Positions 18,736 to 62,688 of a DNA stretch of 64,000 nucleotides are shown here, piece by piece. This DNA comes from a virus (taxonomy: Duplodnaviria; Caudoviricetes), in IMG/VR virus record IMGVR_UViG_2824993554_000003, positions 36,608 to 100,607 of that record; one strand, 5' to 3'. Numbering within the stretch: the first letter of the stretch is position 1; every line of letters begins with the position of its first letter. Position numbers and translations under genes: made by a program. A model generated the notes under the pieces. It was not told the origin of the DNA, searched no databases, and was given only the letters and a program-made list of their open reading frames with translations.

Positions 18736-18763
18736 TGTGCCGGCGCCGTGGCGTTGCACCGGC

Positions 18764-18979: not shown

Positions 18980-19130
18980 TTGGTTTCCGATCTACAATTT
19001 CGACGAGATGACAATATCAGAAAACAACCTGAATGCGCTTGTGACGAGTGTATCTGGTTACCGTTTGATTGACGTCGTCGATTGCCACGTTCTGATGCTG
19101 CGCGGGCGGCCATTGTTCAGCGCCTTCAAT

Positions 19131-19238
19131 AAAAAAGAGCCCCGCCGAGACGGGGCAATTTTGGAAAGGACGGATCGCACAGGAAGGGACGAGTTACATA
19201 CGGCCCCGTCACAAAGGGCCACCCGCGCGATCCGTCCC
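19131..19238 (-). ncRNA. Candidate structured sRNA family A, copy 1
   Basis: GGACGGATCGCGCGGG pairs with CCTGTGCGATCCGTCC; terminator GCCCCGTCTCGGCGGGGCTCTTTTTT; promoter GGACC-N16-GGTT at 19266-19242. Confidence 0.55.
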
Positions 19239-19354
19239 TCTAACCGACAAAGCAATTGTTAGGTCCTGTACGGTTTCGGACAGAGGGATTTAGCCGGCCA
19301 AAGTCGAATCATACAATGAGAGAATATTGCCGACACAGTTTCGCCAGCCGGAAG

Positions 19355-19380
19355 AAAACCCCGCTTCGCGGGGCTTTAAA
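19355..19380. terminator. Intrinsic terminator-like hairpin
   Basis: AAAACCCCGC-TTC-GCGGGGCTTT. Confidence 0.55.
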
Positions 19381-19540
19381 TGCAGAAGTGTCCGATTTCG
19401 TACAAAGCAGTCTGCTACCGATACAACCACATTGCAATTTCTGCTAACCTTCATATGGTCGCTCAGCGATCTGCTAAACCCCAAGCATCTACTTCTCCTG
19501 TGCGTTGGGCGGCCGCTAATTTTCTAATTGCTCCAGGCGG

Positions 19541-19650
19541 CCGCGCAGAAGCGGTTGGAAGAAGGAGTAGACCATAACCTCTGCGCGGTCTGAACCCCTG
19601 GAAGGGGTAGATCGCGAATAATTCAGAGCAAACGCTATTCGACGATCCAA
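19541..19650 (-). ncRNA. Candidate structured sRNA family B, copy 2
   Basis: Same three hairpins as copy 1; promoter GGAAC-N17-GGTT at 19682-19657. Confidence 0.5.
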
Positions 19651-19656
19651 GTGGTT

Positions 19657-19692
19657 AACCACCAGTCGGAGGATGCCGTTCCCGTACAGTTC
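19657..19692 (-). promoter_or_regulatory. EcfG-type promoter overlapped by GAAC-N7-GAAC
   Basis: Minus strand GAAC-TGTACGG-GAAC-N17-GGTT. Confidence 0.55.
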
Positions 19693-19715
19693 CGCACAAA
19701 TCATTCCGCCGCGGA

Positions 19716-19916
19716 TCAAACTAGGAGCCGCAGCAGCGCTGCCTCGTCCTTCACCCCATGCCGGAATGACTGTATAATCCGGCGGGCTAAATCCTCACGC
19801 CCAACGTCTGTGTTGATTTGCTTCACCGAAATGACGTGGTCATAGACCCTTTGGCAGAGCGCCACCTCGGCGTCGTTCAGCACGTTTTGCGCCTGCGCAC
19901 TATGGAACGGGATCAT
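19716..19916 (-). CDS. Conserved 66-aa protein, copy 2 of 3
   Basis: Paralogue of 16944 and 59215; GGGAGGG RBS. Confidence 0.75.
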   Translation of the reverse strand: MIPFHSAQAQNVLNDAEVALCQRVYDHVISVKQINTDVGREDLARRIIQSFRHGVKDEAALLRLLV

Positions 19917-19984
19917 GACGGCCCTCCCTTCCCTATAAAAAGGGTAGGGCGGAAAAGGGCCGGATCAAGCGTGGAGGCTGTGGA

Positions 19985-20288
19985 CTATCGGTCGCACCAG
20001 TCATTCTTCTTCGTCGGTTGCGAGCGGCCGGTGTGAAGGCGTCCGGTCCACCGCGCCGCTCGACACGATCCGCAAGCCCTTTTCAGCCAGTAGCTCTTTC
20101 AGCTTTCCCTTGGCGATTAGCGCCAGCTTCCGTTCCTTCATGCACTTCGCGTGCGATCCGATCTGCGGCGTGTCTATGCCCGAGAACGGAATACCTTCCC
20201 CCAACAACCGCATGTTTTGCCCGTCGCATTTTACAGTGTCGCCATCGACCGCCGTCAGCGATGCGCAGAAGATCAATTCAGCGATCAT
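19985..20288 (-). pseudogene. Thermonuclease (SNase) pseudogene
   Basis: Versus the intact copy at 59485-59862: 71-bp deletion (equivalent to 59521-59591), one-codon deletion, DTPE changed to DTPQ. Confidence 0.85.
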
Positions 20289-20583
20289 CCTTGCTTCCTC
20301 GCATTTCGTTTAAACGCATCAGCCGGTGATAGTATTCCTCGACCTTTCGAATAGCCTCGCGCGGTTCAACTTCGAAGCCTTGGTGGAGCGTCAGCCTTCG
20401 GCGCACACTTGGGCCAAGAACACTCCATTGCCACATGCCGTTATTCGGCCCGCCGCTCTCCATTCGTATCCTCCCGATAATTATTTCCCCGTCATAGCCC
20501 AGCCAATCGAGATCCGTCGGCTGATCGCGTTCGTCGATCTTCGTGCCGCGCCATTTGTAGAGTGGTTGGTATCGAGTGTGCAT
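20278..20583 (-). CDS. Hypothetical 101-aa protein, copy 1
   Basis: YQPLYKWRGT...DGEIIIGRI...GMWQWS; near-identical to 59852-60157. Confidence 0.7.
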   Translation of the reverse strand: MHTRYQPLYKWRGTKIDERDQPTDLDWLGYDGEIIIGRIRMESGGPNNGMWQWSVLGPSVRRRLTLHQGFEVEPREAIRKVEEYYHRLMRLNEMRGSKDDR

Positions 20584-20663
20584 GTTCCGGAACATCGCCC
20601 CGGCCGGCCCAATAATCAATCTGGGTTAGTTGCTTTTTAAGCTGTTGTTGTTGTCATGGTGGC

Positions 20664-21713
20664 ATGACAAAGGCGCCTCGTAAGCTTTCCAAGCCGCTGC
20701 GCGGCGACGCCGAAGCTCCGATCCGAAGCAGGCCGCGCCAAAAGCGCGATCCAGCCCAGCCGAACCTTCTCCTCGATCCAATGCCGGCGCGCATCGAGCC
20801 ATGCCTGGCCCTGTTGAAGTCGCGCCCGCCGAAAGGGCCGCAATGGGTGTTCGAAGTGAAATGGGATGGCTACCGCGTTGCAGTCCACATCGCGCCGTCC
20901 GGCGTTCGCATCCTGACGCGCGGCGGGCACGACTGGACACACCGCTTCCCGGCGATCGCGGCCGAAGCGGCGCAGCTCGGCGCGGCGACGGCAATCCTCG
21001 ATGGCGAAGCCGTAGTGTTGGACGACCAGGGCCGCTCGGATTTCGGCAAGCTGCAGCAGTCGCTGGGCGGCCGGGGCGGGAAGTTGAATTCCGGCGCATC
21101 GGTCCTGATGGCTTTCGATCTTCTATATTTCGATGGCCACGATCTGACGAAGACAGAGCTTTCGACGCGACGGCATCTGCTCGAGGGCCTCATCGCGCCC
21201 GGTCGAGAAAGCGCGATACGCCTCTCCGAAGACGTCGACGCCGACGGCGAGCAGCTGCTGCGCGTCGCTTGCAAGCATGGGCTCGAAGGCATCATCGCGA
21301 AAGACCGCAACAGCACGTATCGCAGCGGCCGCCTCGGCGACTGGCTGAAGATCAAGTGCATCCAGAGTGACGGTTTTCTGATCATCGGATATGAGAGGTC
21401 GATGGCATCCTTCGGGGGCATCGGGCGGTTGCTGCTCGCCGCGCGCAAGGGCGACCAACTCGTCTATGTCGGGGGAGTGGGAACGGGGTTTAACGAACGG
21501 TCCGCGACTGAACTCCGGGGGCAGATGGACCAGCTGGTCATCGGCAAGCCGGCTGTCGATACCGGGCGGAAGCGTAATGCCGTCTTTATCGAGCCGAAGC
21601 TTGTTGCCGAGATCGAATATCGGGCGTGGACGCACGACGGCAAGCTGCGGCATGCGTCGTATAAGGGGCTGCGAGAGGCGGCGGACGAAGTTTCGATTTG
21701 TGAAGTGGAGTGA
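20664..21713 (+). CDS. ligD: ATP-dependent DNA ligase (LigD ligase domain only)
   Basis: EVKWDGYR motif I, LDGEAV, AFDLLY, EGIIAK, YRSGR..WLKIK, LRHASYKGLR. Confidence 0.9.
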   Translation: MTKAPRKLSKPLRGDAEAPIRSRPRQKRDPAQPNLLLDPMPARIEPCLALLKSRPPKGPQWVFEVKWDGYRVAVHIAPSGVRILTRGGHDWTHRFPAIAAEAAQLGAATAILDGEAVVLDDQGRSDFGKLQQSLGGRGGKLNSGASVLMAFDLLYFDGHDLTKTELSTRRHLLEGLIAPGRESAIRLSEDVDADGEQLLRVACKHGLEGIIAKDRNSTYRSGRLGDWLKIKCIQSDGFLIIGYERSMASFGGIGRLLLAARKGDQLVYVGGVGTGFNERSATELRGQMDQLVIGKPAVDTGRKRNAVFIEPKLVAEIEYRAWTHDGKLRHASYKGLREAADEVSICEVE

Positions 21714-21734: not shown

Positions 21735-22622
21735 TCAACGGGCAGCCGATCTGGACATAGCTCTTTGTTCGGCCTTGCTTGCGAAAACGCGTTCGGGGTG
21801 GACAGTCTCCGGACCAAAGATCATTACCTCCGAGCCCCTCCCGTAGTTTCGGGCGCTATATCCAATGCTGAATTGTTCCTGATCGCAATCACTATAGATA
21901 CGGCGAATCTGTTCGACATTGTCGTATGAGGCGACCCATGAATGACGCTCGATCGCCTTCACCACCTCGGCGAGATCGACGTGATCAGCGTGCACAAAAT
22001 GGTTCTGGTATAGTGAAGCACCCTTCACATAGTAAGGCGGATCAATATAAATCAGGCTGCGTGGTTTGATAGCCGGCACGTGACTGGCCAAGAACGCGCT
22101 TGCATCAAGGTTCGTTAAAGTTATTCGACGACGAAACATTCCAATCCTCCTGATCCTCTGGATCAGGTCGTCTTTGTTGAACCGGCAATCAATCTTCCAA
22201 TCGCCCTCTTGGGAAAGACCGCCAATCATGCCGCCGTTCAAGATGCCTGATCGATTTGTCCGGTTTAGAAAGAAAGTTGAGAATCCGACTTCCATTACAT
22301 CGCGATTCTGAGTTTCTCTTTTAATCTCTCTCGCGGCGAGCCAAGTCTCGACGGTTACAGGTGTGGTCTGGATCTTTTTCACAAACTCGTCGGTGTGGTC
22401 GATCACTGCTTTCCAGAAAGCGTAGACCGACCAGTCGATATCATTGATGTGAATGTGCCTCACTCGCTCCGAAAAAAGCAGATCAAGGGCTACCGCGGCG
22501 CCTCCCGCGAATGGTTCGGCGTAGTGGGCGCCTTCAAGCTTGTTCAACTCCAGCAAGGTGGCAAAGTATGGGGCAAGTTTGCCTTTGCCGCCCGGATAAC
22601 GCAGGGGGGAATAGTTTGTCAT
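21735..22622 (-). CDS. DNA adenine methyltransferase (Dam/D12 class)
   Basis: SPLRYPGGK, EPFAGG, FFLNRTNRSG, YIDPPYY. Confidence 0.93.
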   Translation of the reverse strand: MTNYSPLRYPGGKGKLAPYFATLLELNKLEGAHYAEPFAGGAAVALDLLFSERVRHIHINDIDWSVYAFWKAVIDHTDEFVKKIQTTPVTVETWLAAREIKRETQNRDVMEVGFSTFFLNRTNRSGILNGGMIGGLSQEGDWKIDCRFNKDDLIQRIRRIGMFRRRITLTNLDASAFLASHVPAIKPRSLIYIDPPYYVKGASLYQNHFVHADHVDLAEVVKAIERHSWVASYDNVEQIRRIYSDCDQEQFSIGYSARNYGRGSEVMIFGPETVHPERVFASKAEQRAMSRSAAR

Positions 22623-29790: not shown

Positions 29791-30525
29791 TCAGACGGAG
29801 AGTTGTCGCCTGACTCTTACGGCAGTCCCCATTAACAAAACCGCAGCATTGTCTTCGGCGTTCCGATACCCATTGGGTATTTCAGTACGCGGTCGGCGCC
29901 CGAGAACGATGGGGTCAAGGTTTCTCTGCTTGGATTTGCATACTAGGTGAACTTGATTTCCTTGAAGGGAGATGGCCCGAAGGCTGGTTTCCGAGATCCT
30001 TGGGTTATCCAAAGATACGTGGGCGACCACTAATTTTCCTTCGGAGAGAGAGATGGGAAGTTCGCTGTCATCAAGAGCGCTTATGACATCTCCCTTCAGG
30101 ATACCAATTGCTTCCATCGAGTCGTCGCCCATGGCGTACTCGAATATCGCCTGGTCGGGAAAACGTAAGTCTTTGTAAGTTATGAAGCGCTCGAGCGTTT
30201 TGACCTCACCCTCGTTGATCTCGGATGTCGATTTATAGACGCCAGCCCTCAAGACTTCCATGATCTCGCCCGGTGCCGGCTCAAATTGGGCAATGAAATC
30301 ATGAAGTAGCTCCCCGTCTTCCACCTTGCCCAAAAGGTAATCTATGGAGCATTGCAGAGGTCCAGTAAGCTTCAGAAGCGTGTCCATCCTCGGGTGGGCT
30401 GCACGACCTAAAATGATATCTCTCACAGACGAGCGCCCCAGCCCCGCTTCGAGGGCGACGCTCGACGGGTTTTTGCCGAGTTCGTCCAGTCTCTTCTGAA
30501 TTCTTGCGCCTAAATCTCTAATCAT
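29791..30525 (-). CDS. CI-like repressor (XRE HTH + S24-like domain)
   Basis: PSSVALEAGLGRSSVRDIILGRAAHPRMDTLLKL HTH; GDDSMEAIGILKGD. Confidence 0.85.
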   Translation of the reverse strand: MIRDLGARIQKRLDELGKNPSSVALEAGLGRSSVRDIILGRAAHPRMDTLLKLTGPLQCSIDYLLGKVEDGELLHDFIAQFEPAPGEIMEVLRAGVYKSTSEINEGEVKTLERFITYKDLRFPDQAIFEYAMGDDSMEAIGILKGDVISALDDSELPISLSEGKLVVAHVSLDNPRISETSLRAISLQGNQVHLVCKSKQRNLDPIVLGRRPRTEIPNGYRNAEDNAAVLLMGTAVRVRRQLSV

Positions 30526-52208: not shown

Positions 52209-53564
52209 ATGCCCAGAAACCCATCCACCGGCGTCTATTCGAAACCCGCCGGCACGTCTCCTTCGATCGGTCAGATTATCGACCCCGTTCCGTGGAACGC
52301 GCTGACAACCGACCTTGGCAACGAAATCACCAATTCGCTGCCGCGGGACGGCTCGGCGCCGATGACTGCGCCGCTCAAGCTGGCAGGCGGTACGGTATCG
52401 GCACCTGGCATCGGTTTCGCCTCGACGCCGCAGACGGGCCTTTATCTCAAGGGCGGTGGCCTGCTTGGCTTTACGCAGAACGGCGTCGACGTCACATTCG
52501 ATAATGATCTGGTTTACGCGACCAAGACTGTTGATTACACGGCACTGGCGGCCGATGACAACGCGGTTCACCGCTTCACGGCAGCCGCCACGCTCACGTT
52601 GACGGCGGCAGCCACGCTCGGTTCTGGCTGGCACTATGTCGTCATTGCGGACGGCGCAGACGTGACGATTGATCCGAGCGGGGCCGAGACGATCGATGGA
52701 GCGGCGACACTTGTCGTTCCGAACGGGTACTCCACGACCATCGTCTGCAGCGGGTCGGCGTTCTTCACCAACAAACTGATGACGAAGATCCTGACAAAGG
52801 CGGACAGCACGGCCGTCGGAAGCTTCATCGACGGCCTTCTGCTTTCAAACAATACCGGTGCACCAACCACTCACGTCGATTTTGCCGCCGGCTCCGCCAG
52901 GGCGGGTTCGAGCTTCGTTTCCAGCGCGGCTTCATTCACAAAGCGGGTGACGGGGACGTGGGCAGTAGGGACCGGCAACGGCGGCCTCGATGCCGGCGCA
53001 GTCGCGGCGAACGCCACCTATTTCGCCTATGCGCTGCGCAAGGATTCAGATTTGAGCTTCGACGTCGTTCTGTCGACCTCAGCGACCATCGGCGGCGTCA
53101 CCACGACCCTGCTCACCGGCTATACCATCGTAAAATGCATCGGGGTGGTGCTGACGGACGCCAGCTCGCTTATCCGGGCCTTCGTGATGTATCCGAAGGA
53201 CGAGTATACCTTCGTGACGCCGGTCAAAGATGCTGTCAGCGCCGCTATCTCTACGACTTCGGCACTCCTGGCGCTGACAGTGCCAAATGGGGTGAAGGTT
53301 AAAGCCAAGTTGCGGATCCAATTTACATCGAGCGCAACAACCAACGCTGCTCTGATCCATGACCCGGCCCAAGGGACGCTGACCGCCGGTATCGGCAATG
53401 ATGGAGGCATCGCGGGCGCGATCCAGGCTGCAAGCAACTATGCCATCGGCTCCGGCGATATCTGGACAAACACAAGTAAGCAGGTCCGGCAAGTATCCGG
53501 TGCAGCCGGCAACATCTGGGTGTGGACCGATGGCTTCCATTTCCCGTGCGGGAGGAACGCATAA
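52209..53564 (+). CDS. Tail fibre / receptor-binding protein
   Basis: MPRNPSTGVYSKP..ITNSLPRDG anchor; C-terminal half homologous to 8306-9448. Confidence 0.8.
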   Translation: MPRNPSTGVYSKPAGTSPSIGQIIDPVPWNALTTDLGNEITNSLPRDGSAPMTAPLKLAGGTVSAPGIGFASTPQTGLYLKGGGLLGFTQNGVDVTFDNDLVYATKTVDYTALAADDNAVHRFTAAATLTLTAAATLGSGWHYVVIADGADVTIDPSGAETIDGAATLVVPNGYSTTIVCSGSAFFTNKLMTKILTKADSTAVGSFIDGLLLSNNTGAPTTHVDFAAGSARAGSSFVSSAASFTKRVTGTWAVGTGNGGLDAGAVAANATYFAYALRKDSDLSFDVVLSTSATIGGVTTTLLTGYTIVKCIGVVLTDASSLIRAFVMYPKDEYTFVTPVKDAVSAAISTTSALLALTVPNGVKVKAKLRIQFTSSATTNAALIHDPAQGTLTAGIGNDGGIAGAIQAASNYAIGSGDIWTNTSKQVRQVSGAAGNIWVWTDGFHFPCGRNA

Positions 53565-53920
53565 TGCCTTTTGTTTCACGATCTGACGACGGCGCGATCG
53601 ACGGCCTGTTCGAGCAGTTGCAGGAGGGCAGGGCAGAAGAGTACCTGGCTGCCGATGATCCCGCCATTGTCGCGCATGCGAACGCTTTGCCCAAGGTGTC
53701 CTCGGTCTCGGCGCGACAGTTCCGCCTGATGCTACGGCGTTCCGGTCTGCTCGACCAGGTCAAGGCCTGGGTGGCGCAGCAAGATGGAGAAACTCAGGAT
53801 GCCTTCGAGTACAGCGGCACCTTCGTCAAAGACAGCCCGATGATGGCGGCCGGCTTTGCGGCGATGGGCTTCACGTCGCAGCAGATCGAAGCATTCTTTG
53901 CTGCCGCTGCCTCTCTCTAA
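53564..53920 (+). CDS. Tail fibre-associated/assembly protein
   Basis: TAATG overlap; paralogue of 9448-9804. Confidence 0.65.
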   Translation: MPFVSRSDDGAIDGLFEQLQEGRAEEYLAADDPAIVAHANALPKVSSVSARQFRLMLRRSGLLDQVKAWVAQQDGETQDAFEYSGTFVKDSPMMAAGFAAMGFTSQQIEAFFAAAASL

Positions 53921-54131
53921 ACCGTCAGGGGATCAAATAGCCGGCGTGTATTCCGTAGCGAATAACCATCAAAAAAGCGCCGCCGATACCGACGGCGAGC
54001 AAAATCGCTTTACGTGTTTCGTCCTGAATCAATTTTAGTCTCCGTAAAAAAACGAGGAAGTAGGACTTCCGGGTGTTTTGGCAATGAACTTCTTTCGAGT
54101 TTGGGCGCGGGGCTTAAATGGGGGTGAGGGT

Positions 54132-54569
54132 ATGAGCAAGTCAATTCTCCGCTACGTGGCCTGCCTTCCGGTCAATCTCATCTTCGTCGGACTGGCCTAT
54201 CTGCTCTCGCCGTTCCTGGCTGCATGGTCGATGAAGCACGGGCCGGTTCTCCCGGGACGGTGGCGGTGGTTCTCGACGCTGAACGCCGACCTGGACGGCT
54301 ATATCCCGCAAAAGGTCGCGGGTTTCGATCCCGGTGCTAAGGGCTTGAAACTCTGGTGGCAGCGGACTCGCTGGACGTGGCGAAATCCATGCAACGGGTG
54401 GCAATCCGAAGCGCTGGGCATTGCTGACATCGACGACGCCTTCACGGTCAAGCGCGACGTTCCGCTGGCATTCGGCTTCCATCTCAAGGTCTGGCTTGGC
54501 TGGAACCCGGTCAAGCGGGGCGGGAACTACTACCCTTATATGCTGCAGATATCCCCGAAACGGGGCTGA
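54132..54569 (+). CDS. Trp-rich membrane-anchored hypothetical protein
   Basis: N-terminal TM; LPGRWRWFST..DLDG..WWQRTRWTWRNP. Confidence 0.65.
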   Translation: MSKSILRYVACLPVNLIFVGLAYLLSPFLAAWSMKHGPVLPGRWRWFSTLNADLDGYIPQKVAGFDPGAKGLKLWWQRTRWTWRNPCNGWQSEALGIADIDDAFTVKRDVPLAFGFHLKVWLGWNPVKRGGNYYPYMLQISPKRG

Positions 54570-54596
54570 ACCTCTTCCACAATCCGGAGCCTATCC

Positions 54597-54794
54597 ATGC
54601 TCGTCCCTAACTGGCGGCGCGTTCTCGCGCGCTCCCTGTCGCTTTGGTGCGTCTATTTCGCGGGGGCCTTCGAACTGGCCCCGTACATCGTCCCGTATCT
54701 CGACGGCTACATCCCGCCGTGGCTGTCGATCGTCCTCCTCCTGCTTTCCGTCCCGGCTCGGGTAATCGATCAGAGGCTTTCCGATGGCAAATAG
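54597..54794 (+). CDS. Holin-like protein
   Basis: MLVPNWRRVLARSLSLW; two TM; overlaps the endolysin. Confidence 0.7.
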   Translation: MLVPNWRRVLARSLSLWCVYFAGAFELAPYIVPYLDGYIPPWLSIVLLLLSVPARVIDQRLSDGK

Positions 54795-55248
54795 AATGAA
54801 AAAGGGTAGCGCGGTTGCTGCCATGGCCGTGGCGCTTGTCGGTTCTTTCGAAGGGCTCCGGCAAAACGCCTATCCCGATCCGGCAACGCAGGGACAGCCG
54901 TGGACGATCTGCTATGGCAGCACCAACGGCGTGAAGCCGGGAGACTACAAGACCGTCGAGCAGTGCAAGGCGCTTCTGTCGCTCGAACTGCAGAAGTACG
55001 CCGCCGGCATTGACCATTGTGTCACGGTCCCGCTGCCAGATGCTCGCTTCGTCGCTCTCACGTCATTCGGATTTAATGTTGGAGTGAAGGCGGCGTGCGG
55101 CTCTAGTGTCGTCAAACTGATCAACCAGGGCAAGACGGCCGAGGGCTGCGAAGCCTTGTTGAGATGGAATAAGGCCGCCGGCATCACCTTCCCGGGCCTG
55201 ACCCGTCGCCGGCAGAAGGAACGCCAGTTCTGCCTGGAGGGCATCTGA
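54784..55248 (+). CDS. Endolysin, GH24 lysozyme
   Basis: Near-identical to 11119-11583. Confidence 0.93.
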   Translation: MANRMKKGSAVAAMAVALVGSFEGLRQNAYPDPATQGQPWTICYGSTNGVKPGDYKTVEQCKALLSLELQKYAAGIDHCVTVPLPDARFVALTSFGFNVGVKAACGSSVVKLINQGKTAEGCEALLRWNKAAGITFPGLTRRRQKERQFCLEGI

Positions 55249-55592
55249 TGCTCTCCATCATCCCCGACTTCATCAAGCTGCCGGCCGCTCTCGCCCTCGG
55301 CGCTCTCGTCGCCTTCTACCCGGCCCGCTGGCTTGGTCAGTCCGAGGGCAAGCAAATGGCTGCGACAGCCGCCCTCACCAAATCCGTCCAGGTTCTGCGC
55401 GAAAGGAACACGATCGATGACGAAGTTTCCACTTCTGATGCTGCCGCTTTGTGCGCTGATCTCGGGCTGCCAGACGACCAGCAAGCAGAATGTGTGCGAC
55501 GGGTTCTCTCGCCTGACGCCGAGCCTGCACACGTCAGTGACCATCCTGAAGACCGATCGGCCGTTCGCAAACCAGATTGCCAGCCACAATAG
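55248..55592 (+). CDS. i-spanin-like protein
   Basis: TGATG overlap, N-terminal TM. Confidence 0.65.
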   Translation: MLSIIPDFIKLPAALALGALVAFYPARWLGQSEGKQMAATAALTKSVQVLRERNTIDDEVSTSDAAALCADLGLPDDQQAECVRRVLSPDAEPAHVSDHPEDRSAVRKPDCQPQ

Positions 55593-55623
55593 GTTCGGCG
55601 CCTCTCAAGGCTGCTGGGAGTAA
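55417..55623 (+). CDS. o-spanin-like lipoprotein
   Basis: AAGGA RBS; MTKFPLLMLPLCALISG-C lipobox; overlaps the i-spanin out of frame. Confidence 0.7.
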   Translation: MTKFPLLMLPLCALISGCQTTSKQNVCDGFSRLTPSLHTSVTILKTDRPFANQIASHNRFGASQGCWE

Positions 55624-55629
55624 TCGCCC

Positions 55630-57294
55630 ATGAGCATCATGCTAGCCCTTTCCACCTCCATCACAAACCAGTTGGGGGGAGGCACCACGCCGATTTTCAC
55701 TTTCTATGTGGATCCGGCCGGTTCCGATAGCAATGATGGTTTGTCGCAGGTGACGCCCTGGCAGACCGTCGACAAGGTGAACGCCGCCACAATTCCGGCC
55801 GGCTCGACAGTTCTATTTAAGGGCGGCGCTACCTTCAACGGTTCGCTCTATCTGAAAGAAACGCAGCATAGCGGCACGGCCGGGCGCATCACCACATTTG
55901 GTTCCTACGGAACCGGCGTGGCGACCTTCAACGTTGTATCCAGCACGGAAGAAGGCATTTGGACGCAAGATGTTCAATACGTTCTAATTAAGGACTTCAA
56001 GCTCACCGGTCCGGGTCGTACGGTCAGCATGTACGGCGGCCTAGACATTGCGATATCGAAGCCGTCAAACGCTCGCCTTCAAGGGCTGACCATTCGCAAT
56101 ATTGAAGTTTCAGGCTTCAATAACGGCATTATCGGCTGGGGCGGGGCGTCGGATGGCAGTTCTTCCGGCTATGATGATTTGTTGATCCAAAATTGCCTTG
56201 TGCACGATTGCTGCGCTAACGGCAACGGTATTTGGCTTGGCACTTCGGCTTATGGTCTTCTTAACAAGGCGGCGACATGGCTCCGCCCGGTCATCGACGG
56301 TTGTAAAGCCTACGACAATCCGGGCGGCTATACGTCGCCCGTCAGTCACTCCGGATCGGGCGTTCTTCTCACCGGCTGCGATGGCGCGATAGTTCAATAT
56401 TGCGAAGCCTATAACAACGGCGCTGGCAACACCTATGCCGCTGGTCCTGTCGGGATATGGTTTTACGATTGCAAGAATTGCATCATCCAATATTGCGAAA
56501 GCCACCACAATAAAACCGGCGTTGGTACGTCGGACGGCGGCGGCTTCGATATTGACGGCGGTTGCCAAGGCTGCATCGTTCAATATTGCTACAGCCATGA
56601 TAATTACGGGCCGGGCTATCAACTTTATCAATACAGCGACGCGGCTAACATTCTGCCGCTGACCGGCAACCGTATTCGCTACAATATTTCTGAGAATGAC
56701 GGCACGCAGTCACCGACAACCAAGGGCGGCTTGTTGATTGGCACTGCTGAAACTAGTCGCGCTGCGTCAGATAACGTCGTCCACAACAACACGGTATTTA
56801 GCAGTGTCGCGTCTAGCAACGGCTTCTATCTGCATAGCAATCCCGACAAATTCACGTCTTCTTACTTCGCCAACAACATTATTTATCTCACTGGAGCAAG
56901 CACAAAGGTCATTAATTCGGCGCCTAGCGCAGTTCCGGCCGTTTTGTGCATCGGCAATTGTTATTCGTCGCCATCGACTTCCATTAAATGGGGCGCAACG
57001 ACCTATACCACCTTCTCCAACTGGCGAACTGCGTTCCCGACGCAGGAAACAGTTGCCGGCGCGGCAGTGTTCAAAGCTGCTAACCCAACTCTGGTGGGGA
57101 CGGTGCCCGTGGGCAATATCAACGGTTTCAATTCCGCCCTGCTCGGCGCTTACAAGACGCAAGGGGCTTCCGTCTGTCGCAACGGGGGGCAGAACCTCAA
57201 TAGCCTCTACGGTATCACCGTGGGATCGCAGGATCTCTATGGCAACGCGATCCCGCAAGGGCTTTACGATATCGGCTGTTTTGAAAGCGCATAA
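55630..57294 (+). CDS. Right-handed parallel beta-helix protein (pectate-lyase-like depolymerase)
   Basis: FYVDPAGSDSNDG..PWQTV, repeated IVQYCEAYNN/IIQYCESHHN/IVQYCYSHDN, DGGGFDIDGG, YDIGCFE. Confidence 0.82.
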   Translation: MSIMLALSTSITNQLGGGTTPIFTFYVDPAGSDSNDGLSQVTPWQTVDKVNAATIPAGSTVLFKGGATFNGSLYLKETQHSGTAGRITTFGSYGTGVATFNVVSSTEEGIWTQDVQYVLIKDFKLTGPGRTVSMYGGLDIAISKPSNARLQGLTIRNIEVSGFNNGIIGWGGASDGSSSGYDDLLIQNCLVHDCCANGNGIWLGTSAYGLLNKAATWLRPVIDGCKAYDNPGGYTSPVSHSGSGVLLTGCDGAIVQYCEAYNNGAGNTYAAGPVGIWFYDCKNCIIQYCESHHNKTGVGTSDGGGFDIDGGCQGCIVQYCYSHDNYGPGYQLYQYSDAANILPLTGNRIRYNISENDGTQSPTTKGGLLIGTAETSRAASDNVVHNNTVFSSVASSNGFYLHSNPDKFTSSYFANNIIYLTGASTKVINSAPSAVPAVLCIGNCYSSPSTSIKWGATTYTTFSNWRTAFPTQETVAGAAVFKAANPTLVGTVPVGNINGFNSALLGAYKTQGASVCRNGGQNLNSLYGITVGSQDLYGNAIPQGLYDIGCFESA

Positions 57295-57299
57295 GATAC

Positions 57300-57728
57300 A
57301 TGACATCCAACGATGATATCCTGCGCGCTCTCGGCCGCGTGGAGGGAAGGCTTACCGGTATCGAGGAGCACGTCAGCCTCGTACGGAACGAGGTCAGCGA
57401 CGAGAAGGAGAACGCCCACGAAAGCCGGTCGGTCATTCACCGGCGCCTCGATGAGCAAGGCAAGCAGATCAATCTGCTCGACAAGGCTGTCGAGATAAAT
57501 GCGGGCGTCGATGCCCAGGTCCGCGATCAGCTCAAAAGCATCAAGGAAACGGTGCAGAAGAACCACGATGCCGTGCAGCCAACGCTGGAGGAATGGAAAC
57601 GCCTCAAAACTCTCGGCTACGGCATTTCAGGGCTGATCGCTTTTGCCGGACTCACGATCGGCGGGATGGTTGCTTACGCGAGTGATGGGGCTGTGGCTTG
57701 GCTTCGCCATTGGCTAAAGATCAATTAG
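57300..57728 (+). CDS. Coiled-coil protein with C-terminal TM (DUF1515-like)
   Basis: ILRALGRVEGRL..ESRSVIHRRLDE..EWKRLKTLG + TM. Confidence 0.65.
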   Translation: MTSNDDILRALGRVEGRLTGIEEHVSLVRNEVSDEKENAHESRSVIHRRLDEQGKQINLLDKAVEINAGVDAQVRDQLKSIKETVQKNHDAVQPTLEEWKRLKTLGYGISGLIAFAGLTIGGMVAYASDGAVAWLRHWLKIN

Positions 57729-57903
57729 CCAAACACGAGGACGCTCAGAATAACGGCGGCCAAAGACAAATGGTCACATGTTAGGGCTGTTCATCCAAGG
57801 TTCATTGTGCAGAAGCCCCAATAGAACCCTTCCGTCATCGGCGTCACAGCTCATGCGGAAGAGGGAGACTGAAACATCAACATCATCGACCGAGGCCAAT
57901 CAC

Positions 57904-58359
57904 ATGTCGCACAAATTGCTTCTCTCCGCTGCCGGATCGTTGCTTGCTGCTTTTATCATGTCGACGCCGGCGCACGCGCTGACGATGAAGGAATGCAGCA
58001 CGAAATATCAGGCGGCTAAAACCGATGGCTCCGCCAAAGACATGAAGTGGAATGATTTCCGCGCCAAGTTCTGCGGCGCGGACGCTGCTGCCGCTGATAA
58101 GGAAGACGAAGCGGACATCGCAAAAACAACCGACAAAGAGCCTGCAAAGCCGACAACCGCAGCGCCGAAGAGCGTCAAGTTCCCGAAGGCGATCGACAAG
58201 AAGTATTCGAGCGAGACGCCTGGAAAGGGTCGCCTCCATACCTGCGTCGACTCCTACCATGCCGCCAAGGATGCCGGCACGCTCGGCGATCTGAAGTGGA
58301 TCCAGAAGGGCGGCGGCTATTGGAGCCTTTGCAATACGAGCATCAAGTCCGCAGGCTGA
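57904..58359 (+). CDS. Secreted Cys-containing protein with duplicated motif
   Basis: Signal peptide ending AHA; ECSTKYQAAK..KWNDFR and TCVDSYHAAK..KWIQK. Confidence 0.75.
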   Translation: MSHKLLLSAAGSLLAAFIMSTPAHALTMKECSTKYQAAKTDGSAKDMKWNDFRAKFCGADAAAADKEDEADIAKTTDKEPAKPTTAAPKSVKFPKAIDKKYSSETPGKGRLHTCVDSYHAAKDAGTLGDLKWIQKGGGYWSLCNTSIKSAG

Positions 58360-58476
58360 ACGAAGCCTCGCAATGTTGAAGAGGAGGAGGCCGCTATGCA
58401 AGCGGCCTTTCCATTATAGCTATCATTCCAGGCGTAGCTTGGCTCAGCTGCACCAATCATTTTGCGTGTCACCCGC

Positions 58477-58692
58477 TCAGTGGGTCGTGCAAACCATTTC
58501 AATCAAAGCAGCAAGTTGATGGCCCTCAAGGATCGCGTAACGATGGGTACCAGTGCGAACAAGGATCTCGATCGCCTGAAGCTCGTTAATGTTCTCCCCA
58601 GCGTATTCAATTGCTGCTTGCAGCGAGATGAAATTCTTATTCACAGTGCCGGGGAGCCAGCTATGAACGGTGACAAGAGCAGGCGAAGGCAT
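58477..58692 (-). CDS. Conserved 71-aa protein, copy 2
   Basis: Paralogue of 18764-18979. Confidence 0.6.
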   Translation of the reverse strand: MPSPALVTVHSWLPGTVNKNFISLQAAIEYAGENINELQAIEILVRTGTHRYAILEGHQLAALIEMVCTTH

Positions 58693-58842
58693 TTGGTTTC
58701 CGATCTACAATTCAACGAGATGACAATATCAGAAAACAACCTAAGTGCGCCTGTGACAGGTGTATCTGGTTACCGTTTGATTGACGTCGTCGATTGCCAC
58801 GTTCTGATGCTGCGCGGGCGGCCATTGTTCAGCGCCTTCAAT

Positions 58843-58950
58843 AAAAAAGAGCCCCGCCGAGACGGGGCAATTTTGGAAAGGACGGATCACACAGGAAGGA
58901 AGAGTTGACATACGGCCCGTCACTAAGGGCAACCTGTGCGATCCTGCCCC
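58843..58950 (-). ncRNA. Candidate structured sRNA family A, copy 2
   Basis: GGATCGCACAGG pairs with CCTGTGTGATCC; terminator identical to copy 1. Confidence 0.58.
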
Positions 58951-58953
58951 TCG

Positions 58954-58978
58954 AACGGAAAAGCGATTGCTTTGTTCC
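58954..58978 (-). promoter_or_regulatory. EcfG/RpoE2-type promoter, consensus match
   Basis: Minus strand GGAAC-AAAGCAATCGCTTTTC-CGTT (N16). Confidence 0.7.
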
Positions 58979-59038
58979 TGTACGGTTTCGTACGAAGGCG
59001 CGGCCGCGGGATCTTCAAAAGTGCCCACAAGCCGGTAG

Positions 59039-59149
59039 CCGCGCAGAAGGGGTTGGTGAAGGAGTGGACCATTGACCTCTGCGCGGCCCGAACCCCGTGG
59101 AGGGGGTGGATCGGGAACAGTGCAGGGCAGACGCTATCCCGCGATCTAA
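59039..59149 (-). ncRNA. Candidate structured sRNA family B, copy 3
   Basis: Three hairpins retained; the reading frame seen in copies 1 and 2 is broken by a stop here. Confidence 0.5.
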
Positions 59150-59155
59150 GCGGTT

Positions 59156-59191
59156 AACCATCACTCAGCGGATGCTGTTCCCGTACAGTTC
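59156..59191 (-). promoter_or_regulatory. EcfG-type promoter overlapped by GAAC-N7-GAAC
   Basis: Minus strand GAAC-TGTACGG-GAAC-N17-GGTT. Confidence 0.55.
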
Positions 59192-59214
59192 CGCACAAAT
59201 CATTTTGCCGCGGA

Positions 59215-59415
59215 TCAAATTAGGAGTCGCAGCAGCGCTGCCTCGTCCTGCACCCCATGCCGGAATGACTGTATAATCCGGCGGGCTAAATCCTCACGCT
59301 CAGCGGCTGTGTTGATTTGCTTCACCGAAACCACCTGGTCGTAGACCCTTTGGCAGAGCGCCACCTCGGCGTCGTCCAGCACGTTTTGCGCCTGCGCAAT
59401 CTGGAATGGGATCAT
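59215..59415 (-). CDS. Conserved 66-aa protein, copy 3 of 3
   Basis: Paralogue of 16944 and 19716. Confidence 0.75.
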   Translation of the reverse strand: MIPFQIAQAQNVLDDAEVALCQRVYDQVVSVKQINTAAEREDLARRIIQSFRHGVQDEAALLRLLI

Positions 59416-59484
59416 GACAGCCCTCCCTTTCCCTATAAAAAGGGTAGGGCGGAAAAGGGCCGGTTCAAGCGTGGAGGCTGTGGA

Positions 59485-59862
59485 CTATCGGTCGCACCAG
59501 TCATTCCTCTTCGTCGGTTGCCAGGTCCGCGCAAAACCCTCCTGAAGAAGCTTCTTGCCGATTTCTTCCCCATTCGTTCGGTAGATGTTGACGAGCGGCC
59601 GGTGTGAAGGCGTCCGGTCCACCGCGCCGCTCGACACGATCCGCAAGCCCTTTTCAGCCAGTAGCTCTTTCAGCCTTCCCTTGGCGATTAGCGCCAGCTT
59701 CCGTTCCTTCATGCACTTCGCGTGCGATCCGATCTCGGGCGTGTCGATGCCCGAGACGAACGGAACACCTTCCCCCAACAGCCGCATGTTCTGGCCGTCG
59801 CATTTCACCGTGTCGCCGTCGACCGCGGTCAGCGATGCGCAGAAGATCAATTCAGCGATCAT
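59485..59862 (-). CDS. Thermonuclease (SNase) family protein
   Basis: AVDGDT..RL..GIDTPE..D....R.L..LLQEGFA. Confidence 0.85.
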   Translation of the reverse strand: MIAELIFCASLTAVDGDTVKCDGQNMRLLGEGVPFVSGIDTPEIGSHAKCMKERKLALIAKGRLKELLAEKGLRIVSSGAVDRTPSHRPLVNIYRTNGEEIGKKLLQEGFARTWQPTKRNDWCDR

Positions 59863-60157
59863 CCTTGCTTCCTCGCATTCCGTTTAAACGCATCAGCCGG
59901 TGATAGTAACCCTCGACCTTTCGAATAGCCTCGCGCGGTTCAACTTCGAAGCCTTGGTGGAGCGTCAGCCTTCGGCGCACACTTGGGCCAAGGACACTCC
60001 ATTGCCACATGCCGTTCTTCGGCCCGCCGCTCTCCATTCGTATCCTCCCAATGATTATTTCCCCGTCATAGCCCAGCCAGTCGAGATCCGTCGGCTGATC
60101 GCGTTCGTTGATCTTCGTGCCGCGCCATTTGTAGAGTGGTTGGTAGCGATTGGGCAT
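59852..60157 (-). CDS. Hypothetical 101-aa protein, copy 2
   Basis: Paralogue of 20278-20583. Confidence 0.7.
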   Translation of the reverse strand: MPNRYQPLYKWRGTKINERDQPTDLDWLGYDGEIIIGRIRMESGGPKNGMWQWSVLGPSVRRRLTLHQGFEVEPREAIRKVEGYYHRLMRLNGMRGSKDDR

Positions 60158-60312
60158 ATGCGGAACATTGCCCGAGCCGCTTCAATAATCAATCTGGGTG
60201 AATTGGCTTTTAAGCGATGAGGGGGTTCCCAGAGCGGCCCGGTGGACCGCACGGCGACTGCGAACAGGGGTGCAGCAGTACAAGATACTGAAGCCGTGCG
60301 GCCCGTCGTCAC

Positions 60313-60338
60313 AACCCATAACTGCCTGAACAGGTTCC
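60313..60338 (-). promoter_or_regulatory. EcfG-type promoter motif
   Basis: Minus strand GGAAC-CTGTTCAGGCAGTTATG-GGTT. Confidence 0.55.
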
Positions 60339-60357
60339 CGGATCATGAGTTCACCGC

Positions 60358-60449
60358 AAAAAAAGCCCCGCTGGATGGCGGGGCTAGTTTGTACAGACGG
60401 AAAGGCGGCTGCGCCAAAGTTGCTGGGGAGCAGACGAAAGCGCATCCTC
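60358..60449 (-). ncRNA. Candidate sRNA C
   Basis: Lies between promoter 60481-60456 and terminator AGCCCCGC-CATCCA-GCGGGGCT-TTTTTT; TGCT-CCCC-AGCA hairpin. Confidence 0.5.
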
Positions 60450-60455
60450 GCGCAA

Positions 60456-60481
60456 AACCCGCCGTTGCAACAGAAAGTTCC
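60456..60481 (-). promoter_or_regulatory. EcfG-type promoter motif
   Basis: Minus strand GGAAC-TTTCTGTTGCAACGGCG-GGTT. Confidence 0.6.
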
Positions 60482-60543
60482 CGACCCGCACCTAATGAAT
60501 TTGGGCAAATTGCTTTTCCGAGCGCCGCTGCTGAAGTGTCAGC

Positions 60544-61590
60544 ATGGCGAAGCCGTCCCGCAAACCTTCCCTGCCGCTGCTCGGTGAAGCCGACACGCAG
60601 CTCCGAAGCCGCCCGCGCCGGCGCCGAGATCCCGCCCAGCCGAACCTGCCCCTGGACCCGATGCCGGCGCGCGTCGAGCCGTGCCTAGCGCTGCTCAAGG
60701 CCAAACCGCCGAAGGGCGATGATTGGGTTTTTGAGATCAAGTGGGATGGCTATCGCCTGGCTGTCCACATCGAGCCGTCAGGCGTCCGCATCCTGACGCG
60801 CGGCGGCCACGATTGGACCGCGCGCTTTCCGGCGATCCTGGCCGAGGCAAGGCGCCTTCCTGTCTCAACGGCGATCCTCGATGGAGAGGCCGTCGTGCTC
60901 GACGCGCAAGGCCGCTCCGATTTCGGCATGCTCCAGCAGTCGCTGGGCGGGCGAGGGGGCAAGAGGTCGTCCAGAGATGCAATCTTCATGGCATTCGATC
61001 TTCTCTATTTCGACGGCCATGACCTCACCGGAACCGAACTTTCCTCGCGGCGCCACCTCCTCGAGGGACTGGTGCCCACCGGCGGAGAAGATGCCATCCG
61101 ATTGTCAGAGGAGATCGAGGCCGATGGCGAGCAGCTACTGCGCATCGCCTGCGAACACGACCTTGAAGGCATCATCGCAAAAGACCGCGATAGTCCTTAT
61201 CGCAGCGGCCGCCTCGGAGACTGGCTGAAGATCAAATGCATCCAGAGCGACGGGTTTCTGATCGTTGGCTATGAAAAGTCGACGGCTTCCTTCGGAGGCA
61301 TCGGTCGGCTGCTACTTGCCGCGCGCAAGGGAAGCGAGCTCGTCTATGTCGGGGGGGTGGGAACCGGCTTCAACGAGCGCTCCGCGGGGGAACTCCGGGA
61401 GCAGATGGACAGGTTGATCATCGCCAAGCCGGCTGTCAATACCGGGCGGAAGCGTAATGCCATCTTTCTCGAGCCAAAGCTCGTGGCCGAGATCGAATAT
61501 CGGGCATGGACGCACGACGGGAAACTGCGGCACGCAGCATACAAGGGGCTTCGAGAGGGGCAGGATAATGCCGCTGTCTATCAACTTTAG
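60544..61590 (+). CDS. ligD: ATP-dependent DNA ligase (LigD ligase domain only)
   Basis: EIKWDGYR and all motifs as in 20664-21713. Confidence 0.9.
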   Translation: MAKPSRKPSLPLLGEADTQLRSRPRRRRDPAQPNLPLDPMPARVEPCLALLKAKPPKGDDWVFEIKWDGYRLAVHIEPSGVRILTRGGHDWTARFPAILAEARRLPVSTAILDGEAVVLDAQGRSDFGMLQQSLGGRGGKRSSRDAIFMAFDLLYFDGHDLTGTELSSRRHLLEGLVPTGGEDAIRLSEEIEADGEQLLRIACEHDLEGIIAKDRDSPYRSGRLGDWLKIKCIQSDGFLIVGYEKSTASFGGIGRLLLAARKGSELVYVGGVGTGFNERSAGELREQMDRLIIAKPAVNTGRKRNAIFLEPKLVAEIEYRAWTHDGKLRHAAYKGLREGQDNAAVYQL

Positions 61591-61683: not shown

Positions 61684-62688
61684 CTACGCGGACTTCTTCA
61701 GCTGCTTCTTACCGTTCTGTTTGAAGAGCTCGTATTGCGATTTGGCATGCTTGTCAGCATCAGCCCTAGTCGGCCCACCAGACTTATAGCCAGGGAATAC
61801 CGGAAATTCGTTGATCGCCACCAGGTCAGTCAGCTTGTTCAACAGACGTTCCATCGAAACTTGCTTCCCCTGAAGGGCCATGCCTTCGGCGTAAAGCAGC
61901 CACGACTCACCGACGATCTCCATCTTCTTCAGCTCGGTTTCGGTGCAGTAATTCTTCGCCACAGTGATATCTTGGGACGTGGGCGTCCGATTACCCATTG
62001 CGGTCATACCCATATTGGGTTTGCTTGCGTCAGCCCGTTCAAGGATGATCTGCGCCGCAGTTTGCTCCGATGCGGCGAAGTGAAAAACGTTCTGGCTGGT
62101 GGCGAAGAATTTACGGGCTGCCGGATCATCTTTGTCATAATCGATCGCGCACTGGACAAAAGTTTCCCGCACCTGCGTATAGAGGTTCTTCTCCGAGAAG
62201 CGGATAGCGCGGACTTCTTGGGCCAGCTTGAGAAGGGCACGAGGGTCGCTGTTGAGTCTCTTGCCGTTGAGAGCGTAGCCATCCTCAATGTAGCCCTTGA
62301 GAACGCTAGAAGCCCATTTACGGAATTCGGTCGCCTTCTTTGAATTGACCTTGTAGCCGACAGCAAGAATCGCATCGAGACTGTAGTGCTTAACGTCGTA
62401 GGATTTCCCGTCCGACGCAGTTGTCCGGAATTTCCGGACAACTGATTCTTCCTCGAGCTCCCTGGATTCGTAGAGGTTCTGGAGGTGTTCGCTGACCGTC
62501 TTTTTACTGACACCGAAGAGATCTGCCATTTGGTCCTGCGTAGCCCAAACCGTATCCTGCTCGAAGTCGATCGGTAGCGCGACTTCCGTCGTCTCCGTCT
62601 TAAAATTCGCGAATGCATCGAATGAATTAAAAACAGCTTTCGCCGCTTTGGTGAGAGAGCCCACCACCTTCTTGATTATCTTAGCCAT
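61684..62688 (-). CDS. RhuM family DNA-binding protein
   Basis: VWATQDQMADLFG..SEHLQNLY..EL, DGKSY....YSLDAILAVGYKVNSKKATEFRKWA, IRFSEK, FFATSQN..HFA, VAKNY. Confidence 0.85.
   Translation of the reverse strand: MAKIIKKVVGSLTKAAKAVFNSFDAFANFKTETTEVALPIDFEQDTVWATQDQMADLFGVSKKTVSEHLQNLYESRELEEESVVRKFRTTASDGKSYDVKHYSLDAILAVGYKVNSKKATEFRKWASSVLKGYIEDGYALNGKRLNSDPRALLKLAQEVRAIRFSEKNLYTQVRETFVQCAIDYDKDDPAARKFFATSQNVFHFAASEQTAAQIILERADASKPNMGMTAMGNRTPTSQDITVAKNYCTETELKKMEIVGESWLLYAEGMALQGKQVSMERLLNKLTDLVAINEFPVFPGYKSGGPTRADADKHAKSQYELFKQNGKKQLKKSA

Follow-up and report, generated by a model that had tools for sequence, protein, structure and literature searches.

The region 58843-60481 of the 64,000-nt stretch of provirus DNA analysed here (the window) carries on its minus strand four small units, B1, B2, T3 and T4, each headed by the promoter-like motif GGAAC-N16/17-SGTT. 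Three of these, B1, T3 and T4, are likely stand-alone small RNA (sRNA) genes, transcribed as non-coding RNAs from a promoter of the type used by extracytoplasmic function (ECF) sigma factors, as judged from sequence. T4 and T3 are sRNA families not listed in Rfam; the cassettes are mobile and partly prophage-borne, and make up two to four unlisted families. The minus-strand order is B1, B2, ORF101, a gene for an SNase-like nuclease, ORF66, a T3 copy, a T4 copy and ORF71 (ORF, open reading frame). On balance, the region appears to be accessory ('moron') DNA carried by a temperate Rhizobium phage, running from the end of the tail genes to a divergent ligase gene and holding four cassettes of ECF-type promoter and structured RNA.

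The record that contains the window is 100.6 kb long and is classified as a provirus; blastn comparison with plasmids and phages placed the window in the Rhizobium leguminosarum/etli/phaseoli group. This one record contains two related prophages, collinear and arranged in tandem (8863-21678 and 52979-61558, with segments 68-93% identical); we refer to them as prophages A and B, the region belonging to B. An initial annotation of this DNA had attributed the units to two unrelated phages. Self-comparison contradicted this, with 18751-21678 matching 58464-61558 at 78-93% identity and more collinear matches upstream. Since prophages A and B are related, the eight promoter-like sites of that annotation represent four RNA types and not eight independent events. 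By site, these are T3 (59181, 19682 and 16912), T4 (58978 and 19266), B1 (60481) and B2 (60338).

We scanned the motif exactly across both strands of the window and compared the result with shuffled windows. Seven exact sites were found, all on the minus strand (58954-58978, 59156-59181, 60313-60338, 60456-60481, 16887-16912, 19657-19682 and 29839-29864), against a mean of 1.8 matches (standard deviation 1.47) in shuffled windows, where seven was reached in 1/100 shuffles. This confirmed the four sites initially proposed at 58978-58954, 59181-59156, 60338-60313 and 60481-60456, their recurrence as exact matches at 16912-16887 and 19682-19657 in prophage A, and their common orientation; the proposed variants with GGACC (19266-19242) and TGAAC (17793-17768) are likewise both in the sequence. 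The further claim, that conserved boxes are joined by variable spacers, was borne out in part: the T3 copies at 59181, 19682 and 16912 are paralogues with similar spacers, whereas spacers do differ in remoter family members. Motif density was expected to exceed background, and locally it did, with four sites in 1.64 kb of 58843-60481 against ~0.05 expected, ~80x the genome background, the bare motif itself not being enriched genome-wide. Across 108 loci around SNase homologues (800,174 bases), matches on the SNase strand numbered 52 and those on the opposite strand 14. The four units of the region folded with z-scores of -2.3 to -4.9 relative to shuffles, and a terminator scan detected terminator-like sites at 60385-60364 and 58868-58851. 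A sigma-70 promoter scan of 58000-61500 gave no matches, and a search of the whole window for tRNA and tmRNA found none.

Two of the sites in the window stand apart from the RNA units. The site at 29839-29864, not in the initial annotation, lies inside a 244-aa ORF on the same strand (29791-30525) and probably arose by chance; at best it is a promoter within the ORF. Directly after the TGAAC variant starts a 62-aa ATG ORF (17572-17760, minus strand; site and ORF together 17572-17793), which has no PHROG match; because this ORF starts at once after the site, the unit is coding and is not an sRNA.

The T4 cassette of the region (copy B4) consists of exact promoter boxes, GGAAC-N16-CGTT, at 58954-58978 and of an RNA at 58843-58953, with a 12-bp stem, a CUUCCUUCC loop side, a UCCUUUCC linker and an intrinsic terminator at 58868-58851 (minus strand; fold z = -4.9). 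A covariance model of the T4 RNA body, R1, was built from a 12-sequence seed alignment that left the promoter out. R1 scored B4 at 81.3 bits and copy A4 of prophage A at 76.5 bits; the latter (19131-19266, minus strand) has a terminator and a degenerate promoter, GGACC...GGTT, at 19242-19266. A search of 100 sources with R1 returned 47 matches at E <= 0.01, and 27/27 matches of at least 32 bits were on the SNase strand. Five whole Rhizobium genomes held 3-12 matches each. The resulting family comprises 55 R1 matches, which are 53 distinct sequences.

These 53 sequences showed strong conservation of pairing. Paired cells made up 96.2%, against 17-56% in slid controls, 10/17 pairs had changes on both sides, and 0/500 shuffles reached any of five measures; G-U outnumbered A-C in the stems by 80 to 12. 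Members share a conserved-sequence stem of 12 bp and a loop that leads, by UUCCU(C/U) on its 3' side, into the stem CCUG; long forms add the UCCUUUCC linker, and an intrinsic terminator is present. TTCCT was present in 43/53 members and GGAGG in 1/53. Short forms of 69-90 nt (16 copies) and long forms of >90 nt (37 copies, B4 included) are separated by large indels, which we counted as a sign of non-coding sequence. Upstream of the 53 copies, the exact motif was found in 28, GGAAC-N16/17-NGTT in 44 (spacers of 15-18 being permitted in the scan) and GGAAC within 60 nt in 50. The end of the motif coincided with the start of the R1 model in 42 of the 44 copies with a motif match, and the -10 tetramer of 20 of these 44 was CGTT.

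Long and short T4 forms also often occur as tandem pairs ~50 nt apart, each form with its own promoter (L186 9898-10129, L183 9614-9890, L064 5411-5645, L069 5370-5602 and L019 4720-4944). SNase loci and chromosomal loci beside LysR-type regulators alike contain such pairs.

The T3 cassette of the region (copy B3, minus strand) has exact promoter boxes at 59156-59181, with a second GGAAC 11 nt upstream, followed at 59036-59155 by an RNA of three hairpins with CU-rich apical loops (fold z = -4.3); the apical part of the third hairpin reads UGGUCC...CUCCUUC. The T3 covariance model, R2, has 37 pairs and scored B3 at 118.1 bits. In prophage A it detected copy A3 (104.6 bits; 19538-19682 including the promoter at 19657-19682) and copy A3p (119.6 bits; 16775-16886, behind the promoter at 16887-16912), both on the minus strand. 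A3p carries a 3' extension with a terminator, so that the unit spans 16695-16912, and R1 matches the terminator region at 16695-16770; T3 copies with an intact 3' end continue in this manner for ~70 nt to a terminator. Upstream of each T3 copy of the window lies a 66-aa ORF (59215-59415, 19716-19916 and 16944-17144), the ORF66 and T3 module being triplicated; its third copy appeared in the self-comparison at 16777-17142.

Seven close T3 copies were 96.8% paired, against 37-52% in slid controls. Over all 13 T3 sequences, 93.9% of cells were paired, 7/37 pairs had double changes, 0/500 shuffles reached the observed values for four of five measures, and stems contained 71 G-U against 11 A-C. All 13 promoters have GGAAC-N16/17 followed by GGTT (12) or AGTT (1), with a second GGAAC 11 nt upstream in nine. 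Because G-U far exceeds A-C in the stems of both T4 and T3, it is the RNA of the promoter strand that is under selection. For these two families, the original proposal that the promoter boxes are each tied to a structured non-coding RNA was thus upheld by covarying pairs, by G-U pairing specific to one strand and by the constant distance of the promoter.

In the apical loop of T3 hairpin 3, AGAGG-N4-AUG is conserved (59060-59075 in the window, and all T3 copies, with UUG for AUG in one). We rejected the frame that starts here as a gene: past the loop, the encoded peptides (19-54 aa) show no relationship to one another. The element may serve as a decoy for ribosome binding, or may simply have arisen by chance in a loop that is CU/AG-rich.

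A 330-bp stretch with no counterpart in prophage A (60215-60542) carries both B1 and B2. The B1 promoter boxes, GGAAC-N17-GGTT at 60456-60481 (minus strand), match the motif exactly and are kept in loci L062, L055 and L012. They precede an RNA of ~90 nt (60358-60449, minus strand; fold z = -2.3) with a 5' hairpin, a CCUUUCC linker and an intrinsic terminator at 60385-60364, of which homologues were found in 4/108 loci. The B2 boxes, also an exact GGAAC-N17-GGTT (60313-60338, minus strand), are conserved in L002, L062, L055 and L012, and are followed by a long GC-rich hairpin (60244-60304, minus strand; the fold of 60158-60307 has z = -3.95) whose stem resembles that of T4. Loci L062, L055 and L012 contain the whole B1-B2 block in conserved form, and L002 part of it. 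In divergent copies the boxes are retained and the spacers differ (L180 for B1; L181 for B2, with GGAAC-N17-CGTT). By blastn (E <= 1e-6), the block was found in 3/41 genomes of a Rhizobium genus sample, one of them having a 33-nt terminator piece only. No frame with a Shine-Dalgarno (SD) sequence and ATG was found within 120 nt after B1, B2 or B4. An own promoter, a Rho-independent terminator and non-coding character were found together in T4, in B1 and in the T3 copies that retain their 3' end, and not in B2.

What follows B2 varies between loci: ORF101 in the window, L062, L055 and L002/L177, a T4 cassette in L012 and a T3 cassette in L178. B2 is probably a stress promoter with a structured 5' leader that can be placed before varied units, here the ORF101-SNase-ORF66 operon, and not a separate sRNA. 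The modular set of at least three to four sRNA types initially envisaged thus stands in so far as the same cassettes are reshuffled across loci, but the unit at 60338 is more likely a leader.

Metatranscriptome data contained sequences related to the region. Twenty-three rhizosphere RNA runs had 8-24% of the sampled words, and one further, probable DNA source was found. Logan contigs of four runs were 90-100% like the window, mostly 95-99%, and cover parts of 58400-59497 and 59683-59924 (for example 58400-59205, 58851-59033 and 59110-59497); these contigs give no strand, transcription start or level, and may include DNA carry-over. The lack of contig cover at 59940-60700 shows nothing, because the B1-B2 insertion is rare.

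T4 has a patchy distribution. It was detected in 10/41 genomes of the Rhizobium genus sample (E <= 1e-7), with one to five copies each, and in a 121-genome Rhizobiaceae sample (E <= 1e-5) in the centre genome and 13/120 others; scores exceeded 40 bits in two genomes only, the other 12 lying at 31-37 bits. The sole non-centre genome above 40 bits, G053, is also present in the Rhizobium genus sample. T3 is rarer: R2 found no further T3 copies in the 100 sources, four copies in two of the five whole Rhizobium genomes, five copies in 2/41 genus-sample genomes and, among the 121 Rhizobiaceae genomes (E <= 1e-4), matches in the centre genome only (0/120 others). When twelve 20-kb regions around T4 copies of five genomes were compared with the provirus by tblastx, clear phage homology was seen in one, L182.

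Several results weigh against a reading of the units as prophage-borne RNA genes behind stress-type promoters. Three Rhizobium genomes (6.3-8.4 Mb) contained 224, 250 and 226 motif matches against 183, 248 and 229 for a reversed control pattern, a background of ~30-36 per Mb with no genome-wide enrichment of the bare motif; because the reversed control is equally common genome-wide, the motif alone is weak evidence. In T4, -10 tetramers other than CGTT are frequent (TGTT 11, GGTT 8 and AGTT 5 of 44). Nine of the 53 copies, A4 of the window among them, have no GGAAC-N15-18-NGTT; in most of these nine the boxes are degenerate (-35 GGACC, GGAGC or GCAAC; -10 ATT, GTC, GTA or GTG), one has a short spacer and one has no recognisable -10. 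Nor are all units of the region complete. The terminator scan found no terminator for B2, which runs into ORF101-SNase-ORF66, and B3 has lost its own terminator, its 3' tail being replaced by the T4 cassette, so that B3 would read into B4.

The same applies to the phage link. Pfam analysis of 20 ORFs flanking T4 gave families that include LysR, DJ-1/PfpI, NmrA, sulfatase, Crp-like regulator, GNAT, M15 peptidase, DUF1173 and IS66 transposase; blastn detected long-form T4 on 38 Rhizobium plasmids, and no annotated feature lay under the T4 plasmid match among the matches listed (n=25). A blastn search of T4 with its promoter against 50,697 isolated phage genomes gave no match. We accordingly dropped the idea of T4 as phage-specific: ordinary cell genes and IS66 flank it, and one of twelve regions is phage-like. 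The units had been called prophage-borne, and T4 copies do occur in prophages, but they are also found on chromosomes and plasmids beside ordinary genes. Because of these chromosomal and plasmid copies, and with none in isolated phages, prophages are only part of the T4 distribution. T4 is a patchy, mobile Rhizobium family of which the prophage copies form one part.

With their differing bodies, T3 and T4 have ~20 nt in common upstream of the -35 box, with the consensus gGTgCGGAAcCGyACnGGAAC, which places two GGAAC boxes one helical turn apart. In the five genomes, GGAAC-N6-GGAAC-N16-18-GTT occurred five times, against two for a reversed control, and 5/5 occurrences were directly before a T3 or T4 copy. 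This double-GGAAC block could be a recombination handle for the shuffling of cassettes, or a site for a further factor.

We then considered which sigma factor reads the cassettes; statements about published systems here and below refer to parts of the cited papers. GGAAC is a -35 element common to many ECF groups. A test for ECF15/EcfG promoters (-35 GGAAC, -10 CGTT, 16-17 nt apart) gave the four exact sites of the region and 28/53 T4 copies, with 12/13 T3 copies as GGTT. EcfG is the probable reader on this sequence evidence. Both boxes and their spacing agree with the motif GGAAC-N16-CGTT recognised by R. etli EcfG1 (PMC3892343), CGTT is found in 20/44 T4 promoters, and the GGAACTTTT start of many T4 promoters is present in promoters of the general stress response (GSR) locus too. 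The 100.6-kb record had no Sigma70_r2 match and hence the provirus no encoded sigma factor, which makes a phage sigma factor an unlikely reader. The units could instead be real RNAs whose promoters answer to another ECF sigma factor, or require an additional regulator at the GTGCGGAAC-N6-GGAAC block, and so stand outside the general stress response. For R. etli, 18 ECF sigma factors are described (PMC3188799), and the -10 of T4 is often TGTT, GGTT or AGTT. A further point against EcfG is that the upstream GTGCGGAAC-N6 element of the T3/T4 block, always found before T3 or T4, is absent from three intergenic GSR-locus promoters (nepR/phyR region, ReC64-like site), so another or additional factor may act. 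In view of the agreement with the EcfG1 motif, we regard this alternative to EcfG as unlikely.

Another possibility is that the units act in cis, as leaders or 3' ends, regulated by stress, of adjacent mRNAs (ORF101-SNase-ORF66, ORF71). B2 fits such a role, having no terminator and standing upstream of ORF101 in the window, L002/L177, L062 and L055; B3 reads into B4, T3 always comes directly after ORF66 in the window, and ORF71-like frames are close to T4 copies in some other genomes. T4 and B1, by contrast, have their own promoter, a strong terminator and unrelated following genes across loci, and the tandem pairs of long and short T4 have no intervening gene. Even B2 is followed by a T4 or T3 cassette in L012 and L178, and ORF101 keeps a separate upstream box in at least 20 SNase loci without B2. 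As an account of the units in general, action in cis is improbable, and we return to stand-alone sRNAs acting in trans.

The following mechanism is proposed. Under stress, the host EcfG (RpoE4/EcfG1-type, ECF15) would be released and would transcribe the cassettes from GGAAC-N16/17-nGTT, as the motif suggests. The RNAs would start a few nt before the conserved 5' stem and end at the intrinsic terminators; their structure is supported by covariation and their ends are predicted. Stretches that are CU-rich and resemble anti-SD sequences (UUCCUCCUG, CUUCCUUCC, CUCCUUC and UCCUUUCC) are present and would be displayed in loops and linkers. By analogy with described sRNAs, they may base-pair with host or phage mRNAs at the ribosome-binding site and reduce translation, probably with Hfq. 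The cassettes themselves would be mobile modules, reshuffled among the prophages, plasmids and chromosomes of some Rhizobium species. That T3, T4 and B1 act in trans by anti-SD pairing has, in our estimate, a little less than an even chance, the argument being one of likeness.

The RNAs might also be made and do something other than anti-SD pairing, such as titrating a protein or RNA, or serving the phage, for instance when it chooses between lysis and lysogeny under stress, excludes superinfection or counters defences. Conservation of the stem sequence itself, not of pairing alone (GGAUCGCAC...GUGCGAUCC), could mark a protein-binding site; the cassettes also sit in the phage accessory region adjoining nuclease and ligase genes, with the patchy distribution that accessory functions show. 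The CU-rich single-stranded stretches are nevertheless the most consistent unpaired feature and fit the mode of described rhizobial sRNAs (PMC7143759), and many copies are outside prophages, so that we give such roles a low likelihood compared with anti-SD pairing. Finally, although the units are multi-copy, intergenic and patchy with a conserved inverted repeat, it is highly improbable that they are merely palindromic intergenic DNA repeats (RIME/REP-like) with chance or hitch-hiking boxes and no RNA function, since a DNA palindrome would not be expected to show a six- to seven-fold excess of G-U over A-C in its stems, and since T4 and T3 have compensatory changes, the promoter distance is fixed in 42/44 T4 copies, the intrinsic terminator is on the same strand, and 27/27 matches of at least 32 bits in SNase loci are on the SNase strand.

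We compared the cassettes with known systems. A search of the whole window against all 4227 Rfam families at gathering thresholds gave no match. In E-value mode, 58700-60600 and a chromosomal tandem T4 locus gave weak, terminator-driven matches only (24.1 against a threshold of 41, 18.1 against 41 and 22.4 against 50), so that T4 and T3 reach no Rfam threshold. A literature search found no paper linking prophages with EcfG- or RpoE2-dependent sRNAs, in line with the original impression that no such system had been described; supplementary tables of R. etli and S. meliloti non-coding RNAs may list a T4 copy that bears a different name.

The closest published parallels are sRNAs of the general stress response itself. 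[quoted passage not shown] Like these, the units described here are RNAs of ~90-110 nt with a 5' hairpin behind GGAAC-N16-CGTT; ReC64 and GsrN are stress-induced and have a C-rich loop (PMC3892343, PMC5869019). Their genes are single-copy at or near ecfG-nepR-phyR, whereas the present units are multi-copy, accessory and partly prophage-borne, and differ in sequence and structure. The loops of the present units are CU-rich and not C-runs, and part of the motif is in the 3' arm of the stem. For the sRNA-like unit of the GSR locus, 13 kb around NepR was read in two genomes and compared with T3 and T4 by eye. No T4 or T3 match lies at the NepR locus of these genomes, G001 and G002, the window units being in the provirus, and whole-genome searches gave no R1 or R2 match at the ReC64-like site (position 3786 of L140, position 3469 of L141).

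Several S. meliloti sRNAs are preceded by RpoE2 motifs (PMC3616915; PMC7143759). SmelB008, SmelC601, SmelB126/smB9, SmelA001 and SmelA018 share the same sigma motif, some being multi-copy and some C-rich-loop hairpins (PMC7143759, PMC4615179). In the parts of these two papers that describe them no phage link is reported, and with few T4 matches and no T3 match in the 120 other Rhizobiaceae genomes they would probably be different RNAs. The alpha-rhizobial anti-SD sRNAs AbcR1/2 (alpha-r15), NfeR1/alpha-r14 ('cuckoo') and MmgR (suhB) are alike in their CU-rich hairpins and linkers, tandem and multi-copy genes and Rho-independent terminators (PMC7143759, PMC4615179). NfeR1 promoters, unlike those of the present units, are of sigma-70 type (PMC7143759). 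The cuckoo motif CCUCCUCCC, which marks every hairpin loop of that family, was found in 0/53 T4 and 0/13 T3 sequences and on neither strand of 58843-60481, and suhB had the best Rfam score in its clan at 18-19.5 bits against a threshold of 41. Enterobacterial prophage sRNAs (DicF, and the anti-sRNAs of prophages of enterohaemorrhagic Escherichia coli) are accessory phage genes that act on host mRNAs or sRNAs, in other bacteria and with no sequence relation to the present families. To our knowledge, they have not been described as arrays wired to the host general stress sigma factor.

T4 (53 sequences) and T3 (13) are thus unlisted sRNA families with a stress-type promoter, found in prophage accessory regions, plasmids and chromosomes of nodule bacteria. 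The alphaproteobacterial general stress response is known with one or few sRNAs beside its regulatory locus, and the present families bear on its post-transcriptional reach and on its tapping by mobile elements. In a tentative and rather doubtful picture, temperate rhizobiophages, plasmids and chromosomal islands might exchange promoter and sRNA cassettes plugged into the host general stress sigma factor, with recombination at the shared 45-nt double-GGAAC block shuffling the RNA bodies. A prophage would then add stress-triggered translational control to its host, or sense host stress for its own decisions, and the cassettes would form a mobile riboregulatory extension of the general stress response. 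The findings raise the questions of whether lysogeny alters stress tolerance or symbiosis through RNA, whether the promoter depends purely on EcfG, and which targets the CU-rich seeds have. The two covariance models could become database families, which would end the non-annotation of these genes.

The genes around the RNA units are those of a phage accessory region. The region is bounded by a beta-helix tail protein gene (55630-57294) and two small late plus-strand genes on one side, and by a divergent ATP-dependent DNA ligase gene (60544-61590; PF01068 and PF04679, phrog_114) on the other. The nuclease gene at 59485-59862 (minus strand) matches PF00565 at 25.3 bits (cut-off 21) and has homologues in isolated Rhizobium phages, so that the proximity of SNase and ligase genes to the units, pointed out initially, is confirmed. 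An isolated Rhizobium phage has the identical gene order of ligase, small ORFs and SNase without the RNA cassettes, and in the related phage locus L001 the motif was found on neither strand and R1 and R2 gave no match. Searches of the record found no PF00589 integrase and only one PF04860 portal gene, outside the window.

ORF101 (59852-60157, minus strand) encodes a phage protein (phrog_12188, E = 3.3e-28). Upstream of it, at ~60175-60205 on the minus strand, lies a ATTGATTATTGA box with its flanks, also found at ~18500-18530; this box, the one retained in SNase loci without B2, is probably the promoter or operator of the ORF101 operon itself. ORF66 (59215-59415, minus strand), directly upstream of T3, encodes a small protein without Pfam or PHROG family and has an unusually purine-rich ribosome-binding site; in locus L175 an ORF66-like frame lies downstream of T3. 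ORF71 (58477-58692, minus strand), a small protein without family, is downstream of T4 in both prophages.

Prophage A differs from prophage B in several details. Its SNase gene (20001-20400, minus strand) is truncated by a ~63-nt deletion and a 1-nt gap near the 3' end, giving 95 aa as against 125. Between its T3 and T4 copies lies a non-coding insertion (19281-19540) that contains a terminator and three GTTAGCAGA-like repeats. Its positions 27-90 recur in nine other SNase loci; the insertion may be another RNA or protein-binding element. After the ligase, prophage B has a RhuM-family gene (61684-62688; PF13310), where prophage A has a DNA methyltransferase gene (21735-22622; phrog_56). Within prophage A, the ligase 5' region also recurs as a perfect inverted copy of 76 bp (18638-18713 and 20739-20814), adjoined by a direct copy, 83% identical, from the same region (18504-18636 and 20610-20742); together, the inverted and direct copies duplicate the divergent promoter region of the ligase.

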